Positions 51,708 to 59,072 of a stretch of 64,000 bases of DNA are shown piece after piece. The stretch spans positions 640,001 through 704,000 of the forward strand of contig CAVXJS010000009.1 of assembly GCA_963762145.1 (NCBI GenBank), read 5' to 3'. Origin of the DNA: an uncultured Candidatus Rokubacteria bacterium (GTDB taxonomy: Bacteria > Methylomirabilota > Methylomirabilia > Rokubacteriales > CSP1-6). A program made the translations under genes and the position numbers. Each line of letters opens with the position of its first letter. The first letter of the stretch is position 1. The notes under the pieces are model-generated. The model saw only the letters and a list, made by a program, of their open reading frames with translations. It was not told the origin of the DNA and ran no database searches.

Positions 51708-52031
51708 TCACGCCGTCTTCCGGCGAGCAAGAGATTCCTCCCGCCAGGGCTTGTAACACGTCTCGTGCGCGTGAAAGAACACCCCGGCGCCTTCCACTTC
51801 GCGCTCGACGTCGGCCGGCTCGATCGGGCTCCGGCAGACGACGCACGGTCGGCCCGTCCCCCGATGGGACTTGGAGATCCCCTGAACGGGAGGTAACCGG
51901 CCGTCCGACAACTGGGCCTCTATGCGCTGCCTCAACGCATCGTCGGAAACGCAGGCCGCTCGCCACTGAGCGGCCGCCAGGTTTTGCTCGCGGACAATGT
52001 ATCCGTCAAGCATCCGGGCTTGGCCGCTCAT
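51708..52031 (-). CDS. small CxxC..HxxC putative zinc-finger protein (copy 1)
   Basis: LSDGRLP..CVVC..HETCYKPWREES; ATGA overlap with copy 2. Confidence 0.65.
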   Translation of the reverse strand: MSGQARMLDGYIVREQNLAAAQWRAACVSDDALRQRIEAQLSDGRLPPVQGISKSHRGTGRPCVVCRSPIEPADVEREVEGAGVFFHAHETCYKPWREESLARRKTA

Positions 52032-52276
52032 GTTCGCCCCGGGGCGCAGCGCTCCTCGTCCCATAGGTGGAAGCACGCCACGTGAAACTGAATCCCTTTG
52101 CCACCCGTCGTGCTGACCCCTTCCATGACAAACTGCGCCTTGCTGATGAGGTCCTCACAGGCGTCACACGTTTCACCGGCACCAGCACCGCCCCAAACGC
52201 GGGGGATACTGTTTTGCGGCAGGCGACCGTCGGCGAGCTTGCTTTGGATCAGGAGACGAAGGGCGGTCTGCTCCAT
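52028..52276 (-). CDS. small CxxC..HxxC putative zinc-finger protein (copy 2)
   Basis: AAGGAG RBS; LADGRLP..CDAC..FHVACFHLWDEER. Confidence 0.75.
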   Translation of the reverse strand: MEQTALRLLIQSKLADGRLPQNSIPRVWGGAGAGETCDACEDLISKAQFVMEGVSTTGGKGIQFHVACFHLWDEERCAPGRT

Positions 52277-52410: not shown

Positions 52411-52432
52411 CTATTGGACGTTGGTCCAATGG
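52411..52432. promoter_or_regulatory. palindromic operator (TGGACCWWGGTCCA family)
   Basis: CTATTGGACGTTGGTCCAATGG; -10-like CAGAAT at 52384-52389 (-). Confidence 0.75.
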
Positions 52433-52510
52433 CCGCTTCGCGACAGGTTGGCCACCGCTTAGGGCAAAGCTACTAACTCGCCCCCCAGAACGTGCCCCCG
52501 CTGGCTCGCA

Positions 52511-52747
52511 TCATGACTCCTGCGCTTGAAGTCTTGCGGCGTCCTCTCGCCAGAGAGTGAAGCACGCCTGATGGAAGACCCCGCGCCGGGACTCGACCTC
52601 CACCTCGACCTCGGTGTCCGGGGGGCGGATGACCACGTGGCATACAGCACAATGTCCGCCTCGTCCCCGCCCGACCCGGCCTCCCGTAATGGACTTCGGC
52701 GACGCGCTTTGAATCCTTGCCGTAACGGATTGATCGAGAGTGCTCAT
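52511..52747 (-). CDS. small CxxC..HxxC putative zinc-finger protein (copy 3)
   Basis: GGGAGG RBS; CAVC..FHQACFTLWRED. Confidence 0.7.
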   Translation of the reverse strand: MSTLDQSVTARIQSASPKSITGGRVGRGRGGHCAVCHVVIRPPDTEVEVEVESRRGVFHQACFTLWREDAARLQAQES

Positions 52748-52796
52748 CGGCTCCCTCCCACTGGCGTGATGGCCGGCGCCCGAAACCCGCTTCGGG

Positions 52797-53087
52797 TCAT
52801 GCTTCTCTGGGGACTGCCGCCGGGCGAATCGCTTCCTCTCCAGCCTGGAGAGCCTCGGTGACATGCTGCTTCGTGTCCTGCAAGAAATCGTCGGCCCGAC
52901 GCAGGGCATCCCCGCTGCGGTCCAGCACTCTTGCCGCTGTCTCCTCGACCGCCCGGACGCTTTCCGCGGCCTTCGTGCGCACCCCTCGCGTCCTCTCCTG
53001 CACGTACTCCTCCAGCTCCTGCCCCCACAGCCAGACGACGGCCGCCCCCATGATCGCTCCCAGAACAAAGACCTCACTGCTTCGCAT
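52797..53087 (-). CDS. YtxH-like membrane-anchored helical stress protein
   Basis: GAGGAGG RBS; FVLGAIMGAAVVWLW followed by amphipathic helices. Confidence 0.7.
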   Translation of the reverse strand: MRSSEVFVLGAIMGAAVVWLWGQELEEYVQERTRGVRTKAAESVRAVEETAARVLDRSGDALRRADDFLQDTKQHVTEALQAGEEAIRPAAVPREA

Positions 53088-53164
53088 CGTGGTCCTCCTC
53101 GTTTGCGAATAACAATCCCGTGACGGACTTCATGCTCGACGCCCCGGCTGCAACTTTGGGGCCG

Positions 53165-53314
53165 TCAGATGGATCGGCGGCCCGCAATGAACTGGAACAC
53201 GACGACAATGACAGCGATCACCAACAGGAGATGAACCATCCCGCCGCCCGTGTAGGAGCTGCCCATGCCGAGCGCCCACAGTACTAACAGAATCACTGCA
53301 ACCGTCCACAGCAT
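53165..53314 (-). CDS. lmo0937/DUF5670 family small membrane protein
   Basis: AAGGAGG RBS; MLWTVAVILLVLWALG..GGMVHLLLVIAVIVV..GRR. Confidence 0.85.
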   Translation of the reverse strand: MLWTVAVILLVLWALGMGSSYTGGGMVHLLLVIAVIVVVFQFIAGRRSI

Positions 53315-53402
53315 GATCCCCTCCTTACTGCGTCCCTGACACCGGCCCCCTCGCCCGAAGCGATTCGAGGGGCCGGTCAGGAAGCCGAAACCGCGCGAGC
53401 CG

Positions 53403-53489
53403 TTAACGGCGCCAGCGAGAGTATCCCCACCCCCCACCACCGAGGAGGAACAACACGACGAGAACGATCAGTATCGTCTCCGTGGACAT
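53403..53489 (-). CDS. 28-aa membrane peptide MSTETILIVLVVLFLLGGGGWGYSRWRR (DUF3309-like)
   Basis: GGAGG RBS; below the ORF-track cutoff; translated by hand. Confidence 0.75.
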   Translation of the reverse strand: MSTETILIVLVVLFLLGGGGWGYSRWRR

Positions 53490-53572
53490 GATTCATCACC
53501 TCCCACTACTGCGTTGCGACTGCTACGACGGGCGTCATCGCCCATTAGTCTAGTCGCGACCATTTGCGGCGC

Positions 53573-53593
53573 CTATTGGACCTAGGTCCACTA
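53573..53593. promoter_or_regulatory. palindromic operator
   Basis: CTATTGGACCTAGGTCCACTA; TAGACT -10 at 53547-53552 (-). Confidence 0.8.
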
Positions 53594-53660
53594 CGGAATC
53601 GAGATGCAGCCCACTAGAGTACAAGCAACCAGTGATCGGCTCGGATGAGGGGTGTCCATT

Positions 53661-54362
53661 TCATGACGGGCCTCCCTGGCGTTCGTGCACCGCTCGCTCC
53701 ACATCCTCGCGGACGAGCAGACCGATCAGCTCGCCCGCCGAGGTCGTCACGAGAACGTTCGGGAGATCGCGCGTGGCCATGACCTTCGCCAACTCCTCGA
53801 TGGCCACGTGCGGCCGGTAGGTGCTCGGTCCGGGGCGCATGGCGGAACCGGCAGTAACCTCTCCGTCCCTGCCGAGTTGGTCGGCGCGGAGGAGTCCCAT
53901 GACGATTCGCTTCTCATTGACCACGACGCAGGCGTCCCATCCAGCGGCGCGAACGCGTGCCCGAACATCCCGGAGGGGTTCCTCGAGAAGGCAGGTCGGT
54001 ACCTCCCGGCGCGCGACCATCGCGGCAGTCGGTCGGCCGGCAGCCGCGCCTTCGGTCGGGAGCCCGGCCGCCATCCAGTCTGACTTGCCCGCCGCGTAGT
54101 CGTACACCTGGCCGAACCCGAGGCTTTCGAGCCGCCACGCGGCTCGTGCACTCAGGTCTCAGGCAGAGTCCCAGCAGTAGACGACTACGGGTCGCTCGGG
54201 AGCCAAGCTCGCCCGGACCTCGGAATCGATCTTCCGAAGTGGGATGTGCATCGCGCCCGGCAGATGCTGCTCGTCGAACTCCTCTTTGGGCAGTACCTCG
54301 ACGAGCTGCGCACCCTGTGCTACCAGTTGCTGTGCGGCCTCGCGTCCGATTTCAGTCGGCAT
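53661..54362 (-). CDS. rhodanese-CBS fusion protein, putative selenoprotein (in-frame UGA = Sec68), 233 aa
   Basis: HLPGAMHIP..VVVYCWDSA-TGA-DLSARAAWRLESLGFGQVYDYAAGKSDW continues in frame into a CBS pair; hairpin after the UGA. Confidence 0.85.
54118..54158 (-). other. putative bacterial SECIS element
   Basis: CGAGCCGC-GUG-GCGGCUCG hairpin starting 13 nt after the UGA; lower stem CUGAG/CUCGG. Confidence 0.75.
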
Positions 54363-54545
54363 CTTCCTTCTTCCTTTCGGATCTGGGATTGGAGCGAGGG
54401 CACCACGTGGCCACGCGCGGTGGATTGAGGGGCAGGAATCGCGCTCCTCGTCCCGGCGCGACGGGTCCCCCACGTGCGAACGCCCGGAGCGAGGCTGGGG
54501 ACGACCGTCATCTGATAGCGATGCTAACCGCCTCCAGAGGAGCTG

Positions 54546-54569
54546 CCTAGTGGACCAAGGTCCACTAGG
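54546..54569. promoter_or_regulatory. palindromic operator, perfect 11-bp arms
   Basis: CCTAGTGGACC-AA-GGTCCACTAGG; TAGCAT -10 at 54521-54526 (-). Confidence 0.85.
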
Positions 54570-54615
54570 TGAACCTGAGCGCGGCGACTAAGGACGAGGA
54601 GCGGCGTGGCTGCCG

Positions 54616-56415
54616 TCAACGCGCTCTCTCCAGGGCCACCGGCAAGGTGAAACGGAAGCTCGCCCCTCCCTGCGGATTGTTCTCGGCTTCCACCGCGCCG
54701 CCGTGCGCGTTGACGATGGTTCGCACGATGGCCAGCCCCATCCCCAGCCCCGCGCTCTTGGTCGTGTAGAGCGGCTCGAAGATGTGGTCGAGATCCTTCA
54801 GGGCGATGCCTGGCCCTGAGTCCTGAACCGTGACGTGGAGCTCGCCGGCGCCGTCTCGGGCCGTCCGGATGACGAGAGTGCGCGCCCCCGTGTGGGGTTC
54901 GCGCATCGCTTCGAGCCCGTTGAGCACCAGGTTGAGCACCACCTGCTGGAGCTGGACCCTGTCGCCGCGGGCGTTCGGAATGTCCGAGGAGAGCTCGAGG
55001 CTCATCGACACCTTGCGCATGATCGTATCGCTTCTCATGAGCCACGCGACCTCGGTGACGATCTCGTTGAGGTCGAGCGGCACGAACTCCGGCTCACCCT
55101 TCTTGAGGAGGGCGCGCAGTCCGCTGATCACGGCGGTGGCTCGTTCGTCGTCCGCCACGATGTCGCTCAGGATCACACGAATCTCGCGCACCTTCTCGAG
55201 ATCCACCACGTCGCCCTCGACAAGGAGTTGGGCCGCGTGCGCGTTGTTGAGGATCGCGGTCAGCGGCTGGCTCAGCTCGTGGGCCAGCGACGCGGTCAGC
55301 TCGCCCAAGGCGGAGACCCGGCCGATGTGAGCCAGGTCCTGCCGGAGCCGCACCGCCTCGAGCTCCCCCTGCTTGCGTGACAACGCATTGGCGAAGACCT
55401 CGCCGAGGAGGTGAAGCTGCTGGATCAGCTCGTCCGACTTCGCGCGCTCGGCCCCGACCGTGCTGAATATCAGCCCTCCCACCACGATTCCACTCACCAG
55501 GAGAGGCACCGCGACTTGGGGCTTGACCCGGTGCACGAGATAGCTCTGCCGATCCACCGCCGCCTCGTCCGGCAGCTCCTCGAGGTGCGATACGTTGATG
55601 ACCTCACCCCGCTGCAGCCGTGCCGTCATCCACGGAAACTCACCCATCTCCACCCATTCCTCGACCGCCCAGGAACGGGTGGCCGTGCCGTCCCGGGTGA
55701 ACTCGATGAGGCTGCCGCGATCGACCCCCAGGAAATCGACAACCTGGCGAAGCCCTCGCTGGACCGCTTGGTCGAAATCGGCAGCTGACAGATGGCTGAA
55801 TGCGGTCGCCAGGGAGGACAGGAGCTTCTCGAAGCGCAGCCGCTCGGCGAGCGATAGCTCCATCCGCCGGCGATCCAGGATCCCGGCGAAGGCCTCGCTG
55901 AGGAGGCGGAGCCGCCCCACCAGGTCGTCCGGCCAAGCGTGGCCGTCACGAACGGAGGCGAAGGAGAGCACCCCGAGGATGGGTCCCCCGGTGCGCAGGG
56001 GGATCAACACTTGCGAGCGCGTGCCCACGCGCTCCCAACTGGCCCGATCGATCGCGGCCGCCTTTGGCAGCTCGGCGAGTCGAGAGAATCGGACAACCTC
56101 CCCTTCCCGTAGTCTCCCCGATACCCAGGGGAACAGGTCGGCGGCCGTGACCTGCTCCTCGAGGCCCGGCCGTGCCCACGAGAGGCGGAGCCTCGGCCTG
56201 CCTTCGGCGTGCTCGTCGAGCCCGCCTCGATCCACGCCCAGGAACGTGACCACCTGCTGTAGTGCGCGCTCGATCGCCACGCCAGTGTCGGGCGCGCTCA
56301 CGTGAATCAACCCGGCGGACAGCTCCGAGAGGAGCGTCTCGAAGCGCAGGCGGTTCGCCAGCAGGAGCTTCGTCGACCGGCCCGTCCGCCGGCGAGCCAA
56401 ATCGCGGCGTTTCAC
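54616..56415 (-). CDS. GAF-GAF sensor histidine kinase (FixL/NodV-like HisKA), no adjacent response regulator
   Basis: Two ERLRFE-type GAF repeats; GELTASLAHELSQPLTAI; DRVQLQQV; GLGMGLAI. Confidence 0.9.
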   Translation of the reverse strand: MKRRDLARRRTGRSTKLLLANRLRFETLLSELSAGLIHVSAPDTGVAIERALQQVVTFLGVDRGGLDEHAEGRPRLRLSWARPGLEEQVTAADLFPWVSGRLREGEVVRFSRLAELPKAAAIDRASWERVGTRSQVLIPLRTGGPILGVLSFASVRDGHAWPDDLVGRLRLLSEAFAGILDRRRMELSLAERLRFEKLLSSLATAFSHLSAADFDQAVQRGLRQVVDFLGVDRGSLIEFTRDGTATRSWAVEEWVEMGEFPWMTARLQRGEVINVSHLEELPDEAAVDRQSYLVHRVKPQVAVPLLVSGIVVGGLIFSTVGAERAKSDELIQQLHLLGEVFANALSRKQGELEAVRLRQDLAHIGRVSALGELTASLAHELSQPLTAILNNAHAAQLLVEGDVVDLEKVREIRVILSDIVADDERATAVISGLRALLKKGEPEFVPLDLNEIVTEVAWLMRSDTIMRKVSMSLELSSDIPNARGDRVQLQQVVLNLVLNGLEAMREPHTGARTLVIRTARDGAGELHVTVQDSGPGIALKDLDHIFEPLYTTKSAGLGMGLAIVRTIVNAHGGAVEAENNPQGGASFRFTLPVALERAR

Positions 56416-56796
56416 CTCAGCTATCTCTCGGCGCGCAAGCGCCAGGCTTCGGATTCTGGCGCCACACGAGATAACACGTCAGGTGGGCCACTGCCGCCCC
56501 TTGCGCTCCTTCGATGCAGTCGCGCTGCCAGTTCGGGATCAACCCCTGGCTGGCCGGTCAGGCCTCGTGACGTTCTTCGACGTCCGCCCCGCCAGGCCTT
56601 CAGCCACCGAATTCCAGCAACCGGGCCACGGCACACTAGGCCGATTATACCCCTCACCCATGATTTACGAGAGGTTGCACGCGATAGACAGTCGCACAAT
56701 GGCGTCAGGATCGACGGTCGCGGCCGGGGATGCTGGGTGATGCTGCAGTGAACTCGAAAGCAGGTCAGTCCACCAAACCGGGGGCAACTCTAGAGT

Positions 56797-56979
56797 TCAC
56801 GGCCTGGTCGGGCTTGCCGCGCGGGAGCGCGGGGCTCCTGGCTTCGCCGAGACGTGAACGGTGTACCCTTTGAACCGGATGGGCGCGCTGATCTTCCTTC
56901 GGATGATCCCGCTCACACGCCCTGCCCCGGGGGTTCAGCTCACATGGTCACCGATCTTGAACGCGCCCGGCCTGGCCAT
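56797..56979 (-). pseudogene. DUF2945 (Tudor-like) protein with a premature stop
   Basis: FKIGDHVS*..AGRVSGII..FKGYTVH; TGA at 56935-56937 falls where the family has Trp; C-terminus degraded. Confidence 0.7.
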
Positions 56980-56991
56980 CTCTTCCCTGTC

Positions 56992-57369
56992 CTAGGAGGC
57001 ACCGCCAAGGGTGAGCAGACAGGCGCTCTCATCGAGGGCCTCCACCTCATGCGCGACGGCTGCCTCCAGCACGACGAGCTCGCCGGATCCAAGCCGCTCC
57101 GCGCGGCCGCCAGCCCGAAAGGTCACGGAGCCGCTCAGGACATGGAAGGTCAGCGGCCCGGCGGTCTGATGCTCGGAGAGCGTGGTCCCCTTGCCGAGCA
57201 GCATCAGCACCACGCGAAGTGCGGGCTCCTTGACCAAGGTGATCGCGTTGCGTCCACTCGTACGCCATGTGGTCTCTTGCCTGAGCCGCTCCAGCTGCTC
57301 GCCGAGCCGCAGGCACTGGAGGGGAACCTCGACGGGGCGGGCCGGTCTCGCCTTCCACTCGTCCACCAT
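56992..57369 (-). CDS. cupin domain protein
   Basis: GRNAITLVK..LRVVL..HQTAGPLTFHVLSG..AHEVEA. Confidence 0.85.
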   Translation of the reverse strand: MVDEWKARPARPVEVPLQCLRLGEQLERLRQETTWRTSGRNAITLVKEPALRVVLMLLGKGTTLSEHQTAGPLTFHVLSGSVTFRAGGRAERLGSGELVVLEAAVAHEVEALDESACLLTLGGAS

Positions 57370-57439
57370 GACTGTCTCCAATCTGCCGTTCTGTGAGAGT
57401 GCGAAGACACGCTGATAGCCCAAGTGTCGGCATCGCGTA

Positions 57440-58231
57440 CTACTTCTGCTGCCCGCGCGCCGATGTTGTTGCGCCGAGAAGAAGTCCCTCGAAACGCCGA
57501 GGAGCCTCAGGCTCGTTGGCCCTGACACTCCCGCCCCCGGCACGGGCCGACTGCCTCAGCCGTTCCGTCCGCATCCGTTCCATGAGCTGGGGGAACGAGG
57601 ACGTCCGCATGCTCGACGCGAACTGGCTCCGATATGTGGACACGAGACTCGTACCGTCCAACACGATGTCGTAGACAGCCCACCGCGAGCCGCGTTCGAG
57701 CAACTGATACTCGATCGAGATCCCGGAACCGGTGGCTGGGGTGACGAGGGAACGCACTCGAGCAAGAGATCCGGTGACCTCCTCGCTCAGGAATGCCACG
57801 CGCTCACCGGAGTACCGTTCCACGGCCGTCGCGTAAGCCTGGGTGAAGACGTCGGCGAACAGCCGAACGAACTCGTCCTGCTCCTGCGGCAGACAGTCTT
57901 TCGAATGCTGCCCCATTACCCGGCGGGCCATTTCGTTGAAGGCGAAGAGGTCGAGAGCGACGCGGCGGATCTGTGTGCGGCGGTCCTCGCTGCCGGCCAT
58001 ACTTACCGTCGGCGACTGGGTAATCGCGAGCACGCGCGAGACCGAGGACTTCACGAGGTCGAGGGGCCTGAGTGAGCCAGCGGCCGCTCCCGTGTCGTCC
58101 CCCGGCTGGGCGCCACCTACGATGCCCGCACTGCCGAGGTTGAGAGCAAGCACGAGAACCACGAGCGCGGACAGGCAACGCCCAGTGAGTCGCCAGCTTG
58201 CCAAGGGCGCTCGCGCCGGGAGAGGCCTCAT
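57440..58231 (-). CDS. mlaC: MlaC/Ttg2D phospholipid-binding protein (paralog 1)
   Basis: FAFNEMARRVMG, WAVYDIVLDGTSLVSTYRSQF. Confidence 0.8.
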   Translation of the reverse strand: MRPLPARAPLASWRLTGRCLSALVVLVLALNLGSAGIVGGAQPGDDTGAAAGSLRPLDLVKSSVSRVLAITQSPTVSMAGSEDRRTQIRRVALDLFAFNEMARRVMGQHSKDCLPQEQDEFVRLFADVFTQAYATAVERYSGERVAFLSEEVTGSLARVRSLVTPATGSGISIEYQLLERGSRWAVYDIVLDGTSLVSTYRSQFASSMRTSSFPQLMERMRTERLRQSARAGGGSVRANEPEAPRRFEGLLLGATTSARGQQK

Positions 58232-58265
58232 CGCAGTATGACTCTAGCGTTCGTCAGCCGGCCCG

Positions 58266-58295
58266 GCCTATTGGACCTTGGCCTATTGGACCTTG
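58266..58295. promoter_or_regulatory. operator half-site as a 15-bp tandem duplication, inside the mlaC intergenic gap
   Basis: GCCTATTGGACCTTG x2; TAGAGT -10 at 58241-58246 (-). Confidence 0.7.
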
Positions 58296-58337
58296 GGGCA
58301 CCCCCCTGCTCGTCGAGGCGCGCTCCAGCGCTTCGGC

Positions 58338-58919
58338 TCAGGAGGTGCCAGGGCCCTTGAGTCGTCGAACCAGCTCCCCGTACGAGGTCGTCCGGATGAC
58401 TCGGTCGAACTGAGACCGATAGCTCGCGATGAGGCTGACGTTCTCGACCAGAACGTCGTAGATAAGCCAACGATCCGCCTTCCGTAGCAGGCGCGACTCG
58501 ACTGGTATCTGCGTCCCCTTCTTGGTCACGATCACCGCCCGCACGATCGCATAGTCACCGTCGATCTTCTCACTCACATACTTGATCTGCTCGCCACCGT
58601 ACTCGCCGATCCGGGACAGGTACCCGCGCTCGAGAAGATCCTGGAACAACTGCACAAACTCCCCCTGCTCCGCCGCGGTGCGTTGCTGCCAGTGGAGCCC
58701 GAGGGCGCGCTTGGCGGCTTCTGTCACGTCGAACGCTTCGCCGGCGACCGTCCGCACCGCTTCCAGACGAGCCGAGGCCGTCAGCGTCGGGTTCTCCAAG
58801 GCCTTCATCACTTGATCGGTGTACGCGCGTAGCTGCTCGGTCGGCGAACTCGCCCATGCGTACCCCTCGAGACTCAGCGTGATGACCACCGTCAGCGCCA
58901 ACTGCCGCATGATTTTCAT
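58338..58919 (-). CDS. mlaC: MlaC/Ttg2D phospholipid-binding protein (paralog 2)
   Basis: AGGAGG RBS; FDVTEAAKRALG, WLIYDVLVENVSLIASYRSQF. Confidence 0.88.
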   Translation of the reverse strand: MKIMRQLALTVVITLSLEGYAWASSPTEQLRAYTDQVMKALENPTLTASARLEAVRTVAGEAFDVTEAAKRALGLHWQQRTAAEQGEFVQLFQDLLERGYLSRIGEYGGEQIKYVSEKIDGDYAIVRAVIVTKKGTQIPVESRLLRKADRWLIYDVLVENVSLIASYRSQFDRVIRTTSYGELVRRLKGPGTS

Positions 58920-59003
58920 GGTCCCTCCTGTTCGATCAGCTCGGTCTACTCTGGCGCAAACCTCTGCGCCTGATCGCGACTCTAGCCGACGTGATCCCGC
59001 GCG

Positions 59004-59072
59004 CCTATTGGACCTTGGTCGCTGGTGACTCTCCACACTGGCGTGGCAGGTCGTTGGACCAAGGTCCGATAG
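59004..59072. promoter_or_regulatory. two palindromic operators serving divergent promoters
   Basis: CCTATTGGACCTTGGTCGC with TAGAGT at 58979-58984 (-); GTTGGACCAAGGTCCGATAG with TAGACT at 59093-59098 (+). Confidence 0.8.

Follow-up and report, generated by a model that had tools for sequence, protein, structure and literature searches.

Is an in-frame TGA in the middle of a rhodanese-like gene a lesion, or a codon that is read as selenocysteine (Sec)? The question is raised by a locus of an uncultured Candidatus Rokubacteria bacterium (GenBank assembly GCA_963762145.1), which lies in a stretch of 64,000 nucleotides (nt) of contig CAVXJS010000009.1 (positions 640,001 to 704,000, forward strand), hereafter the window, in whose coordinates local positions are given. 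The list of minus-strand open reading frames (ORFs) holds two pieces at this locus, 54159..54473 (104 amino acids, aa) and 53661..54107 (148 aa). An earlier interpretation made from the letters alone (the sequence-only reading) had taken the two pieces for one frame broken by a single TGA, and had predicted a 233-aa protein with Cys63 and Sec68. Translation bears out both points: with TGA read as U, 54473-53661 gives a single frame, whose sole internal TGA lies at 54161-54159 and whose terminal TGA lies at 53663-53661, and the product from the ATG at 54362 has 233 residues, including Cys63 and Sec68. This start is conserved, since 66 of the 79 related loci whose Sec site had been located by a regular expression give an in-register, ATG-started product of 215-250 aa, nearly all beginning with MP; in the window, the purine-rich AAAGGAAGAAGGAAG precedes the ATG. 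We consider it very likely that the locus is one intact selenoprotein gene of 233 residues, joining a rhodanese domain to a CBS pair and endowed with the Cys63/Sec68 chemistry proposed below. Judged from the comparison of homologues, the TGA at 54161-54159 is almost certainly a Sec codon, not a lesion. The features of the locus are collected in Table 1.

Table 1. Features of the rhodanese-CBS locus and its surroundings (window coordinates)
Feature	Position	Strand	Basis or remark
Rhodanese-CBS selenoprotein coding sequence (very likely)	53661..54362	-	233 codons and terminal TGA; ATG 54362-54360
UGA almost certainly read as selenocysteine, residue 68	54159..54161	-	column conservation; Sec machinery
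Cys63 codon, canonical catalytic-Cys position of the rhodanese fold	54174..54176	-	invariant in alignment A2; HMMER alignment to 3tp9/1yt8
Rhodanese homology domain, residues 10-98	54069..54335	-	Pfam PF00581, 53.4 bits against a cut-off of 22.2, E 3.9e-14
CBS pair (Bateman module), about residues 113-229	53676..54026	-	Pfam CBS 173-226; model; Foldseek
SECIS-type hairpin, 8-bp stem, apical loop GUG at 54136-54138	54128..54146	-	inside codons R73-A-A-W-R-L-E79
Perfect 20-bp palindrome TAGTGGACCAAGGTCCACTA, candidate operator	54548-54567	.	0 mismatches; 186 nt upstream of the ATG
Palindrome copy, 1 mismatch	53574-53593	.	downstream of the gene; 134 nt upstream of the minus-strand DUF5670 gene (start 53440)
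GAF-GAF-HisKA-HATPase kinase	54616-56415		upstream of the selenoprotein gene

We examined the codon at the Sec column in several samples. Among 61 genomes (the present one and 60 relatives; match threshold E <= 1e-20), 12 match the gene, and each of the 14 site-covering matches has one TGA and no more, with U at the same motif column throughout (YCWDSAU, YCYDYYU or YCHD[TAV]QU) at identities down to 46%; a fifteenth match spans only residues 113-230. A pattern scan of species-representative genomes gave at least 540 relatives, and in the best 80, which were analysed, the column holds TGA at all 80 loci (79 located by the regular expression, L118 being the eightieth). By label, 53 of these loci belong to Actinomycetota, 12 to Dormiibacterota, 10 to Rokubacteria/Methylomirabilota and 3 to Chloroflexota, with 1 labelled Bacillota and 1 in a bin labelled Nitrososphaerota. 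Even a metagenome scan that was deliberately seeded with a Cys-form protein (P0014) returned TGA at 78 of its 80 loci and TGC (Cys) at the other 2, L119 and L120. In a sample of its own phylum the gene occurs in 14 of 201 genomes, with TGA in 15 of 15 site-covering matches, and in a sample of Actinomycetota it occurs in 36 of 301 genomes, where 40 of 44 site-covering matches contain an in-frame TGA and 4 contain none, a tally that counts an in-frame TGA anywhere in the match, without inspection of its position. The TGA is thus not peculiar to this assembly. Across the DNA loci examined, the homologous column always holds TGA or Cys, never Trp, Arg or Gln, and TGG was not seen there among 160 DNA loci.

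Protein databases give a more mixed picture. At the Sec column of the best 120 matches we found Cys in 39, Trp in 11 (P0016, P0039, P0040, P0043, P0044, P0054, P0058, P0067, P0071, P0074 and P0103), Arg in one (P0023) and Ser in one (P0048), while 68 lack the loop. Because TGG is absent from the column in the 160 DNA loci, the Trp forms are probably TGA codons that a gene caller translated under a code in which TGA means Trp. The genuine Cys forms, namely TGC in L119 and L120 and Cys in 39 of the 120 best database proteins, make up the classical Sec/Cys signature. A FastTree tree of 205 rows contains at least 10 switches between Sec and Cys and, under midpoint rooting, has a Cys root; since the Cys rows come from a protein database able to hold only full-length Cys forms, we draw no conclusion on Sec/Cys ancestry from it. 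On these counts the family is Sec-dominant, with a wide distribution among soil Actinomycetota, Dormiibacterota, Methylomirabilota/Rokubacteria and Chloroflexota. Two loci stood out in the course of the comparison. L036 (G060:C82:596-1285), found in a relative that has the gene twice, retains the TGA and runs out of register over residues ~95-125 before returning to it, a slip that is either a double frameshift or an assembly error. L117, in a bin labelled Candidatus Nitrosopolaris sp., an ammonia-oxidising archaeon, is a bacterial-type copy with TGA and most likely a binning contaminant.

The decoding of UGA as Sec presupposes a dedicated machinery, whose presence had been named as a check on the sequence-only reading, and tRNA-Sec, selA, selB and selD are all present in the genome. 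The tRNA-Sec scores 69.3 bits and is given the anticodon TCA by ARAGORN; selB scores 363 bits and selA 577 bits. These three genes form one minus-strand cluster (C9:751777-756726), which shares a contig with the window and starts some 48-53 kb further on from where the window stops. The selD gene occurs twice (G000:C11:419505-420437 and G000:C14:136744-137655); the better-scoring copy (341 bits) has one in-frame TGA and is probably a selenoprotein itself, and the other (280 bits) has none. The scores of all these components exceed the curated cut-offs. Five other carriers of the gene, from four labelled phyla, were tested, and selA and tRNA-Sec exceed their cut-offs in all five. Within the sample of Actinomycetota, 34 of 36 carriers and 172 of 265 non-carriers possess selA, figures that are counts and not a statistical test, as related genomes are not independent and unpublished genomes are included. 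TGA is otherwise an ordinary stop in this stretch, where it ends 6 of 8 neighbouring genes as well as the gene itself.

Just 3' of the UGA lies the hairpin CGAGCCGC-GUG-GCGGCUCG (54146-54128), of the type of a selenocysteine insertion sequence (SECIS). It is 19 nt long with a perfect stem of 8 base pairs (bp), and it starts at the 13th nt counted from the UGA, which leaves a spacer of 12 nt and a distance of 20 nt from the UGA to the loop. Folded alone it has a free energy of -15.1 kcal/mol, and its 81-nt context one of -39.9 kcal/mol (z = -2.5). Folding and coordinates confirm the stem, the loop and the position that had been claimed for the hairpin. Of the possible lower stem that had also been proposed, it holds that it forms in the window sequence, but we rejected it as part of the element: it is not conserved, being 70.5% paired in 113 sequences, with covariation no better than in shuffles. 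For bacterial SECIS elements (bSECIS), section 5 of PMC13188914 summarises the consensus of Zhang & Gladyshev 2005: a loop of 3-9 nt carried by a stem of 4-16 bp, a G within the first two positions of the loop (as a rule with G or U next), a UGA-to-loop distance of 16-37 nt, and a minimum free energy of at most -7.5 kcal/mol; with its GUG loop, 8 bp, 20 nt and -15.1 kcal/mol, the hairpin lies within the consensus on all four counts.

As the hairpin encodes a conserved peptide, R-A-A-W-R-L-E, we used codon usage to separate constraint on the RNA from constraint on the protein. Across 158 distinct coding segments, 69 columns hold a four- or sixfold degenerate residue that is conserved in at least 90%. 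Four of them, all stem codons, are frozen, with entropies of 0-0.10 bits: A74 is GCC in 157 of 158 segments, A75 is GCG in 158 of 158, R77 is CGG in 157 of 158 and L78 is CTC in 156 of 158. At the other 65 columns the codon entropy is 0.63-2.31 bits. The upper stem is 97.6% paired across 113 sequences, and the third base of R73 alternates between A and G, either of which can pair with the U across the stem (54 of the 113 have A-U, 59 have G·U). In these alignments, the freezing of synonymous sites marks an RNA element exactly where a SECIS should lie.

We then considered the protein that would result from reading through the UGA. Both its halves are under amino-acid conservation in a 44-sequence alignment (A2). 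An AlphaFold2 model of the read-through product, built with a 44-row alignment, has a mean predicted local distance difference test score (pLDDT) of 93.7 and a predicted template modelling score (pTM) of 0.83; it comprises a strand at 59-62, a loop at 63-69 and a helix at 70-80, followed by the CBS pair at ~113-229, which contains two beta-alpha-beta-beta-alpha units. The read-through product is thus predicted to fold as one protein. One CBS repeat exceeds its Pfam cut-off (PF00571 at 173-226, 33.9 bits against 24). By Foldseek, the CBS half matches the CBS pairs of MgtE, AcuB and CBSX1/2, with full-pair matches to 2ef7, 2p9m and 6uof at template modelling (TM) scores on the target of 0.76-0.85, and the rhodanese half matches the folds of 3nhv, 3tp9 and 3ilm; no solved structure spanning both domains was found by sequence or Foldseek comparison. 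In the ESM Atlas, the Cys homologue P0003 falls only into 'CBS/Rhodanese-like' and truncated 'CBS' clusters.

The UGA falls within the active-site loop, V-V-V-Y-C63-W-D-S-A-U68-D-L-S, in the context …VVVYCWDSA-U-DLSARAAWRL…. A sulfurtransferase-type rhodanese is expected to open its loop, behind the central strand, with a Cys; here this residue is C63, which HMMER aligns with the active-site loop Cys that 3tp9 and 1yt8 have in their rhodanese domains. Since this alignment opens a gap of two residues in 3tp9 and 1yt8, the loop is two residues longer here. Invariant positions in A2 include Y62, C63, D65, U/C68, D69, S71, R73, A74, R77 and L78; W64 and C124 are nearly invariant, and C145 is not conserved. 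In catalytically active rhodaneses of the sulfurtransferase type the loop is typically a cationic one of six residues, C-R-x-G-x-[RT]. The present loop, C-W-D-S-A-U-D-L-S, does not match that pattern: it is acidic and lacks arginine, with D65 and D69 invariant, and this speaks against an anion site of the classical kind for thiosulfate or phosphate.

The site is also covered by assemblies of other runs. Logan contigs of three further runs from three studies (X2, whose study may also be the source of the present DNA, X5 and X6) span 54159-54161; among the differences listed none falls on the TGA, and the nearest are at 54155 and 54165. Loose ends occur at 54161 in X2 and X5, where the coding-strand reading is that of a relative of lower G+C content that again runs into the same TGA. 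A contig from a metatranscriptome library (X15, 784 nt, 40 differences, spanning 53654-54418) covers the site as well; it represents the gene of a relative about 95% identical, but as such libraries can contain DNA we do not take it as a sign of transcription. At window position 54165, 4 nt upstream of the TGA, one contig of run X2 (depth 4.6 of 33.6) lacks one base, which points to a minor variant or a relative, or else to an error.

Several observations weigh against the selenoprotein interpretation or limit it. The hairpin lies within the conserved peptide RAAWRLE, and its conservation is therefore partly a matter of the protein. No compensatory double change in the stem was found among the 113 sequences, because the stem hardly varies. 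Both TGC loci, L119 and L120, retain the same hairpin sequence, so that its conservation is not strictly tied to UGA in every lineage, although a recent change from Sec to Cys would explain this retention as well. The gene was not found in 20 genomes of the same genus, whose completeness is 63-100%; elsewhere in the order, a genus of another family has it in 10 of 15 genomes, at up to 79% identity, and this patchy distribution suggests loss or transfer. The gene neighbourhood is not conserved, 275 neighbouring ORFs falling into 232 clusters of which the largest covers 6 of 79 loci. Recurrent neighbours do exist, namely a USP-ABC1 kinase (6 of 79 loci), AhpC, OsmC and a disulfide reductase (3 of 79 each), along with genes annotated as adenylate cyclase and MFS transporter, but they are too rare to support a functional claim. 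Nine of the 301 Actinomycetota genomes are unpublished, and when they are set aside, 27 of 292 genomes carry the gene and an in-frame TGA is found in 29 of 33 matches. The further runs are represented by Logan contigs rather than raw reads, and the agreement at 54159-54161 refers to the 40 differences listed out of 81. Finally, the incorporation of selenium and the full-length protein are predictions from sequence, and the function is entirely inferred.

How else might the TGA be explained? A nonsense mutation or an assembly error in a pseudogene would account for a single in-frame stop in an assembly of the metagenome-assembled type (88% completeness, 5.4% contamination), for the missing gene in the 20 genomes of the same genus and for the frameshifted appearance of L036. 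It would leave unexplained why independent loci share this codon at this column (80 of 80 and 78 of 80, at identities as low as 46%), why both halves keep their amino-acid conservation, and why the contigs of other runs show no difference at the site among those listed; the conservation of the TGA effectively refutes this explanation, whose probability we put at next to nil. We also hold it to be highly improbable that the locus makes two products, a 67-residue peptide ending at the UGA and a separate CBS protein starting at the internal GTG (54107) or nearby. ORF 53661-54107 does have a GTG start, and 68 of the 120 best database matches are truncated calls of this kind, mostly 145-165 aa long. 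These calls, however, begin at differing places (LSARAAW…, MSARAAW… and MYDYAAGK…), the internal start falls inside the rhodanese fold (model strand 86-89), the Pfam rhodanese domain runs through the UGA without a break (residues 10-98), and the synonymous sites of the stem codons are frozen where a SECIS is expected. In bacteria, Sec decoding is known to compete with termination, and some 67-residue product is therefore likely. Lastly, the UGA might stand for one of the standard amino acids (Trp, Gly or Cys), by way of an altered code or near-cognate suppression, to which the 11 W, 1 R and 1 S at the column among the 120 best database proteins might seem to point. We give almost no credence to this, because TGA ends 6 of 8 neighbouring genes and this gene, TGG is missing from the column in the 160 DNA loci, and a full Sec machinery is present together with a consensus SECIS.

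Under Sec decoding, what might the protein do? By established bacterial Sec biology, the UGA at 54161-54159 would be decoded as Sec during translation, with SelB·GTP·Sec-tRNA(Sec) recruited by the 19-nt hairpin that starts 12 nt downstream. Cys63 occupies the canonical catalytic position, and Sec68 would lie five residues on, just before the N-terminus of the next helix. On this anatomy, the two residues could form a reversible selenenylsulfide or act as carriers of sulfane sulfur or selenium, and the protein may be a thiol/selenol oxidoreductase or a sulfur(selenium)transferase, to which the CBS pair would add a ligand-binding or dimerising regulatory module. We thus infer a Cys63/Sec68 redox or sulfur-transfer couple, set in an enlarged acidic rhodanese loop that is joined to a CBS pair. 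The sequence-only reading had called the CBS domains adenylate-sensing; this is suggested only by their fold resemblance to ligand-bound CBS pairs and is not established.

Two other functions are conceivable for the same Sec-decoded gene. The protein could be a redox or persulfide sensor or regulator, in which a Cys63-Sec68 bond alters the interaction of the CBS pair with a partner: the fold-matched proteins made of a CBS pair only include the regulators CBSX1/2 and AcuB, the gene is usually monocistronic in varied contexts, its recurrent neighbours elsewhere are stress and redox genes, and here it is flanked by palindromes and has a GAF-GAF histidine kinase and small stress-type genes as neighbours. 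It lacks a conserved partner in its vicinity, though, and the protein has no DNA-binding or output domain; nothing in these data separates sensor from enzyme, and we consider a sensor somewhat unlikely, while keeping it in serious consideration. Alternatively, the loop could act on an oxyanion or metalloid (arsenate, selenite, tellurite or chromate) in the manner of Cdc25/Acr2, or the protein could traffic selenium to SelD. The loop is indeed longer than in the aligned sulfurtransferase domains, and among the NCBIfam models the one for ChrE, a rhodanese of chromate resistance, matches weakly (29.4 bits, cut-off 120). A loop without arginine and with invariant D65 and D69 is nevertheless a poor fit to anion binding, and selD lies in the flanks of only 1 of 160 related loci, which speaks against trafficking to SelD and led us to reject a linkage of the gene to selD; this pair of functions seems to us improbable.

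Regarding local context, the selenoprotein gene is followed downstream by the DUF5670 gene, small unassigned ORFs and FtsH. It had been claimed to sit under the most perfect operator of a candidate regulon. The 20-bp palindrome is real, with two matches in the window against 0.01 expected. Its core, TGGACCNNGGTCCA, has 9 matches in the window against 4.0 expected, that at 54548-54567 included, and 7 of the 9 (at most 2 mismatches) lie within 52415-59068, most of them preceding a minus-strand gene by 40-190 nt, the genes concerned being a small Cys-rich ORF, DUF5670, the selenoprotein and two for MlaC. The half-site arrangement xGGAC-N4-GTCCx is one that we take to recall DosR/NarL-type boxes; no response regulator was seen among the scanned neighbours of the cluster. 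The regulon itself fared less well, since genome-wide there are 9 sites with at most 2 mismatches against 11 for a reversed-pattern control, and the palindrome was not found beside the gene in relatives, with only weak matches (at most 3 mismatches) at 16 of 152 loci. A lineage-specific candidate operator remains a plausible description of it. Further along the minus strand, ORFs 51708-52076 (122 aa) and 52028-52276 (82 aa) have no Pfam match and share a similar Cys-rich C-terminal pattern, …C-x-x-C…FH-x-x-C-[FY]-x-x-W, on which they look like paralogues.

The way in which such genes are called has hidden the family. As had been anticipated, standard pipelines split the gene: public protein sets hold truncated halves, and 68 of the 120 best matches are without the loop. 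NCBI-sourced truncated records such as P0073, P0077, P0088 and P0099 show that the gene is not annotated as a selenoprotein in current NCBI entries, and NCBI, JGI and ENA records carry a truncated 'CBS domain-containing protein' whose N-terminal piece is discarded. Since gene callers truncate the gene, hundreds of species carry a mis-annotated copy and the selenoproteomes of soil bacteria are under-counted. The presence of the family may indicate a dependence on selenium in Actinomycetota, Dormiibacterota, Chloroflexota and Rokubacteria, and it merits a single consolidated description and a profile model. With Sec beside, and not at, the catalytic Cys, it also lends itself to asking what selenium contributes to persulfide and disulfide chemistry.

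We finally compared the element and the protein with known systems. The hairpin resembles the E. coli fdhF-type SECIS, and the bSECIS consensus, in being a coding-region hairpin just 3' of the UGA with a small loop that starts with G-U; it differs from the fdhF SECIS in having a loop of 3 nt only, with no bulged U visible. For the rhodanese half, the best solved match is BH2092 of Bacillus halodurans (PDB 3nhv and 3o3w; Foldseek root-mean-square deviation 1.6 Å over 109 columns at 28% identity; phmmer E 1.4e-10), a single-domain rhodanese from structural genomics whose PDB titles state no function. Its loop, YCWGPAC, has a Cys-x4-Cys in register with Cys63-x4-Sec68, but it has Cys in place of Sec, G-P where D-S stands here, N at the position of D69 and no CBS pair. 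No NCBIfam model scores above its cut-off for the present protein; of the selenoprotein models, those for TsoB and rhodanese LYCAU score best. Rhodanese LYCAU (NF041203; 'form 3', CxU) likewise retains the catalytic Cys with a Sec downstream in the loop, although its Sec is at +2 and here at +5 (C-x4-U), no CBS pair is named for it, and its model gives 26 bits against a cut-off of 115.

As far as its accessible text goes, the 2026 catalogue PMC13188914 distinguishes five forms of rhodanese-like selenoprotein (UxxS, UxxG, CxU, UxxG and UxxxxU), and neither 'CBS' nor 'CxxxxU' occurs in that text. TsoB (NF045694; 'rhodanese form 5', UxxxxU) is, according to this source, a rhodanese selenoprotein with two chalcogens spaced x4, as here, but its catalogue row sets it apart by two Sec and a DsbD-like membrane fusion in place of the CBS pair; its model matches only weakly over residues 20-114 (29.1 bits against a cut-off of 805). 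Forms 1, 2 and 4 (UxxS, UxxG and UxxG; form 1 represented by Geobacter sulfurreducens) are described there as Pfam rhodaneses with one Sec. In the UxxG forms U takes the catalytic position of a canonical C-R-x-G loop, whereas the present family has an invariant Cys there. U68-D-L-S71 fits the UxxS motif of form 1 literally, but identity with that form is unlikely. The present family is not recognisable among the five forms. The part of a 2022 review available to us lists the same older forms, the available parts of the Sargasso, Olavius and 2006 papers speak only of a 'rhodanese-related sulfurtransferase' with no CBS domain mentioned, and 'rhodanese' was not found in the Table S1 sheet of the BSepDB supplement. 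A rhodanese-CBS selenoprotein was not found described in the literature, judged by titles and abstracts, with several candidate lists outside the scope of that search. We lean, with some reserve, towards the view that the family is unlisted in published catalogues, Sec-dominant (about nine in ten of the sampled copies) and common in aerobic soil lineages thought to be poor in selenoproteins, that it is perhaps among the most widespread soil selenoproteins other than formate dehydrogenase, and that it would perform, in a rhodanese cradle, a selenenylsulfide or sulfane-sulfur chemistry without characterised precedent. The rhodanese-CBS family is an addition within the known class of rhodanese-like selenoproteins.

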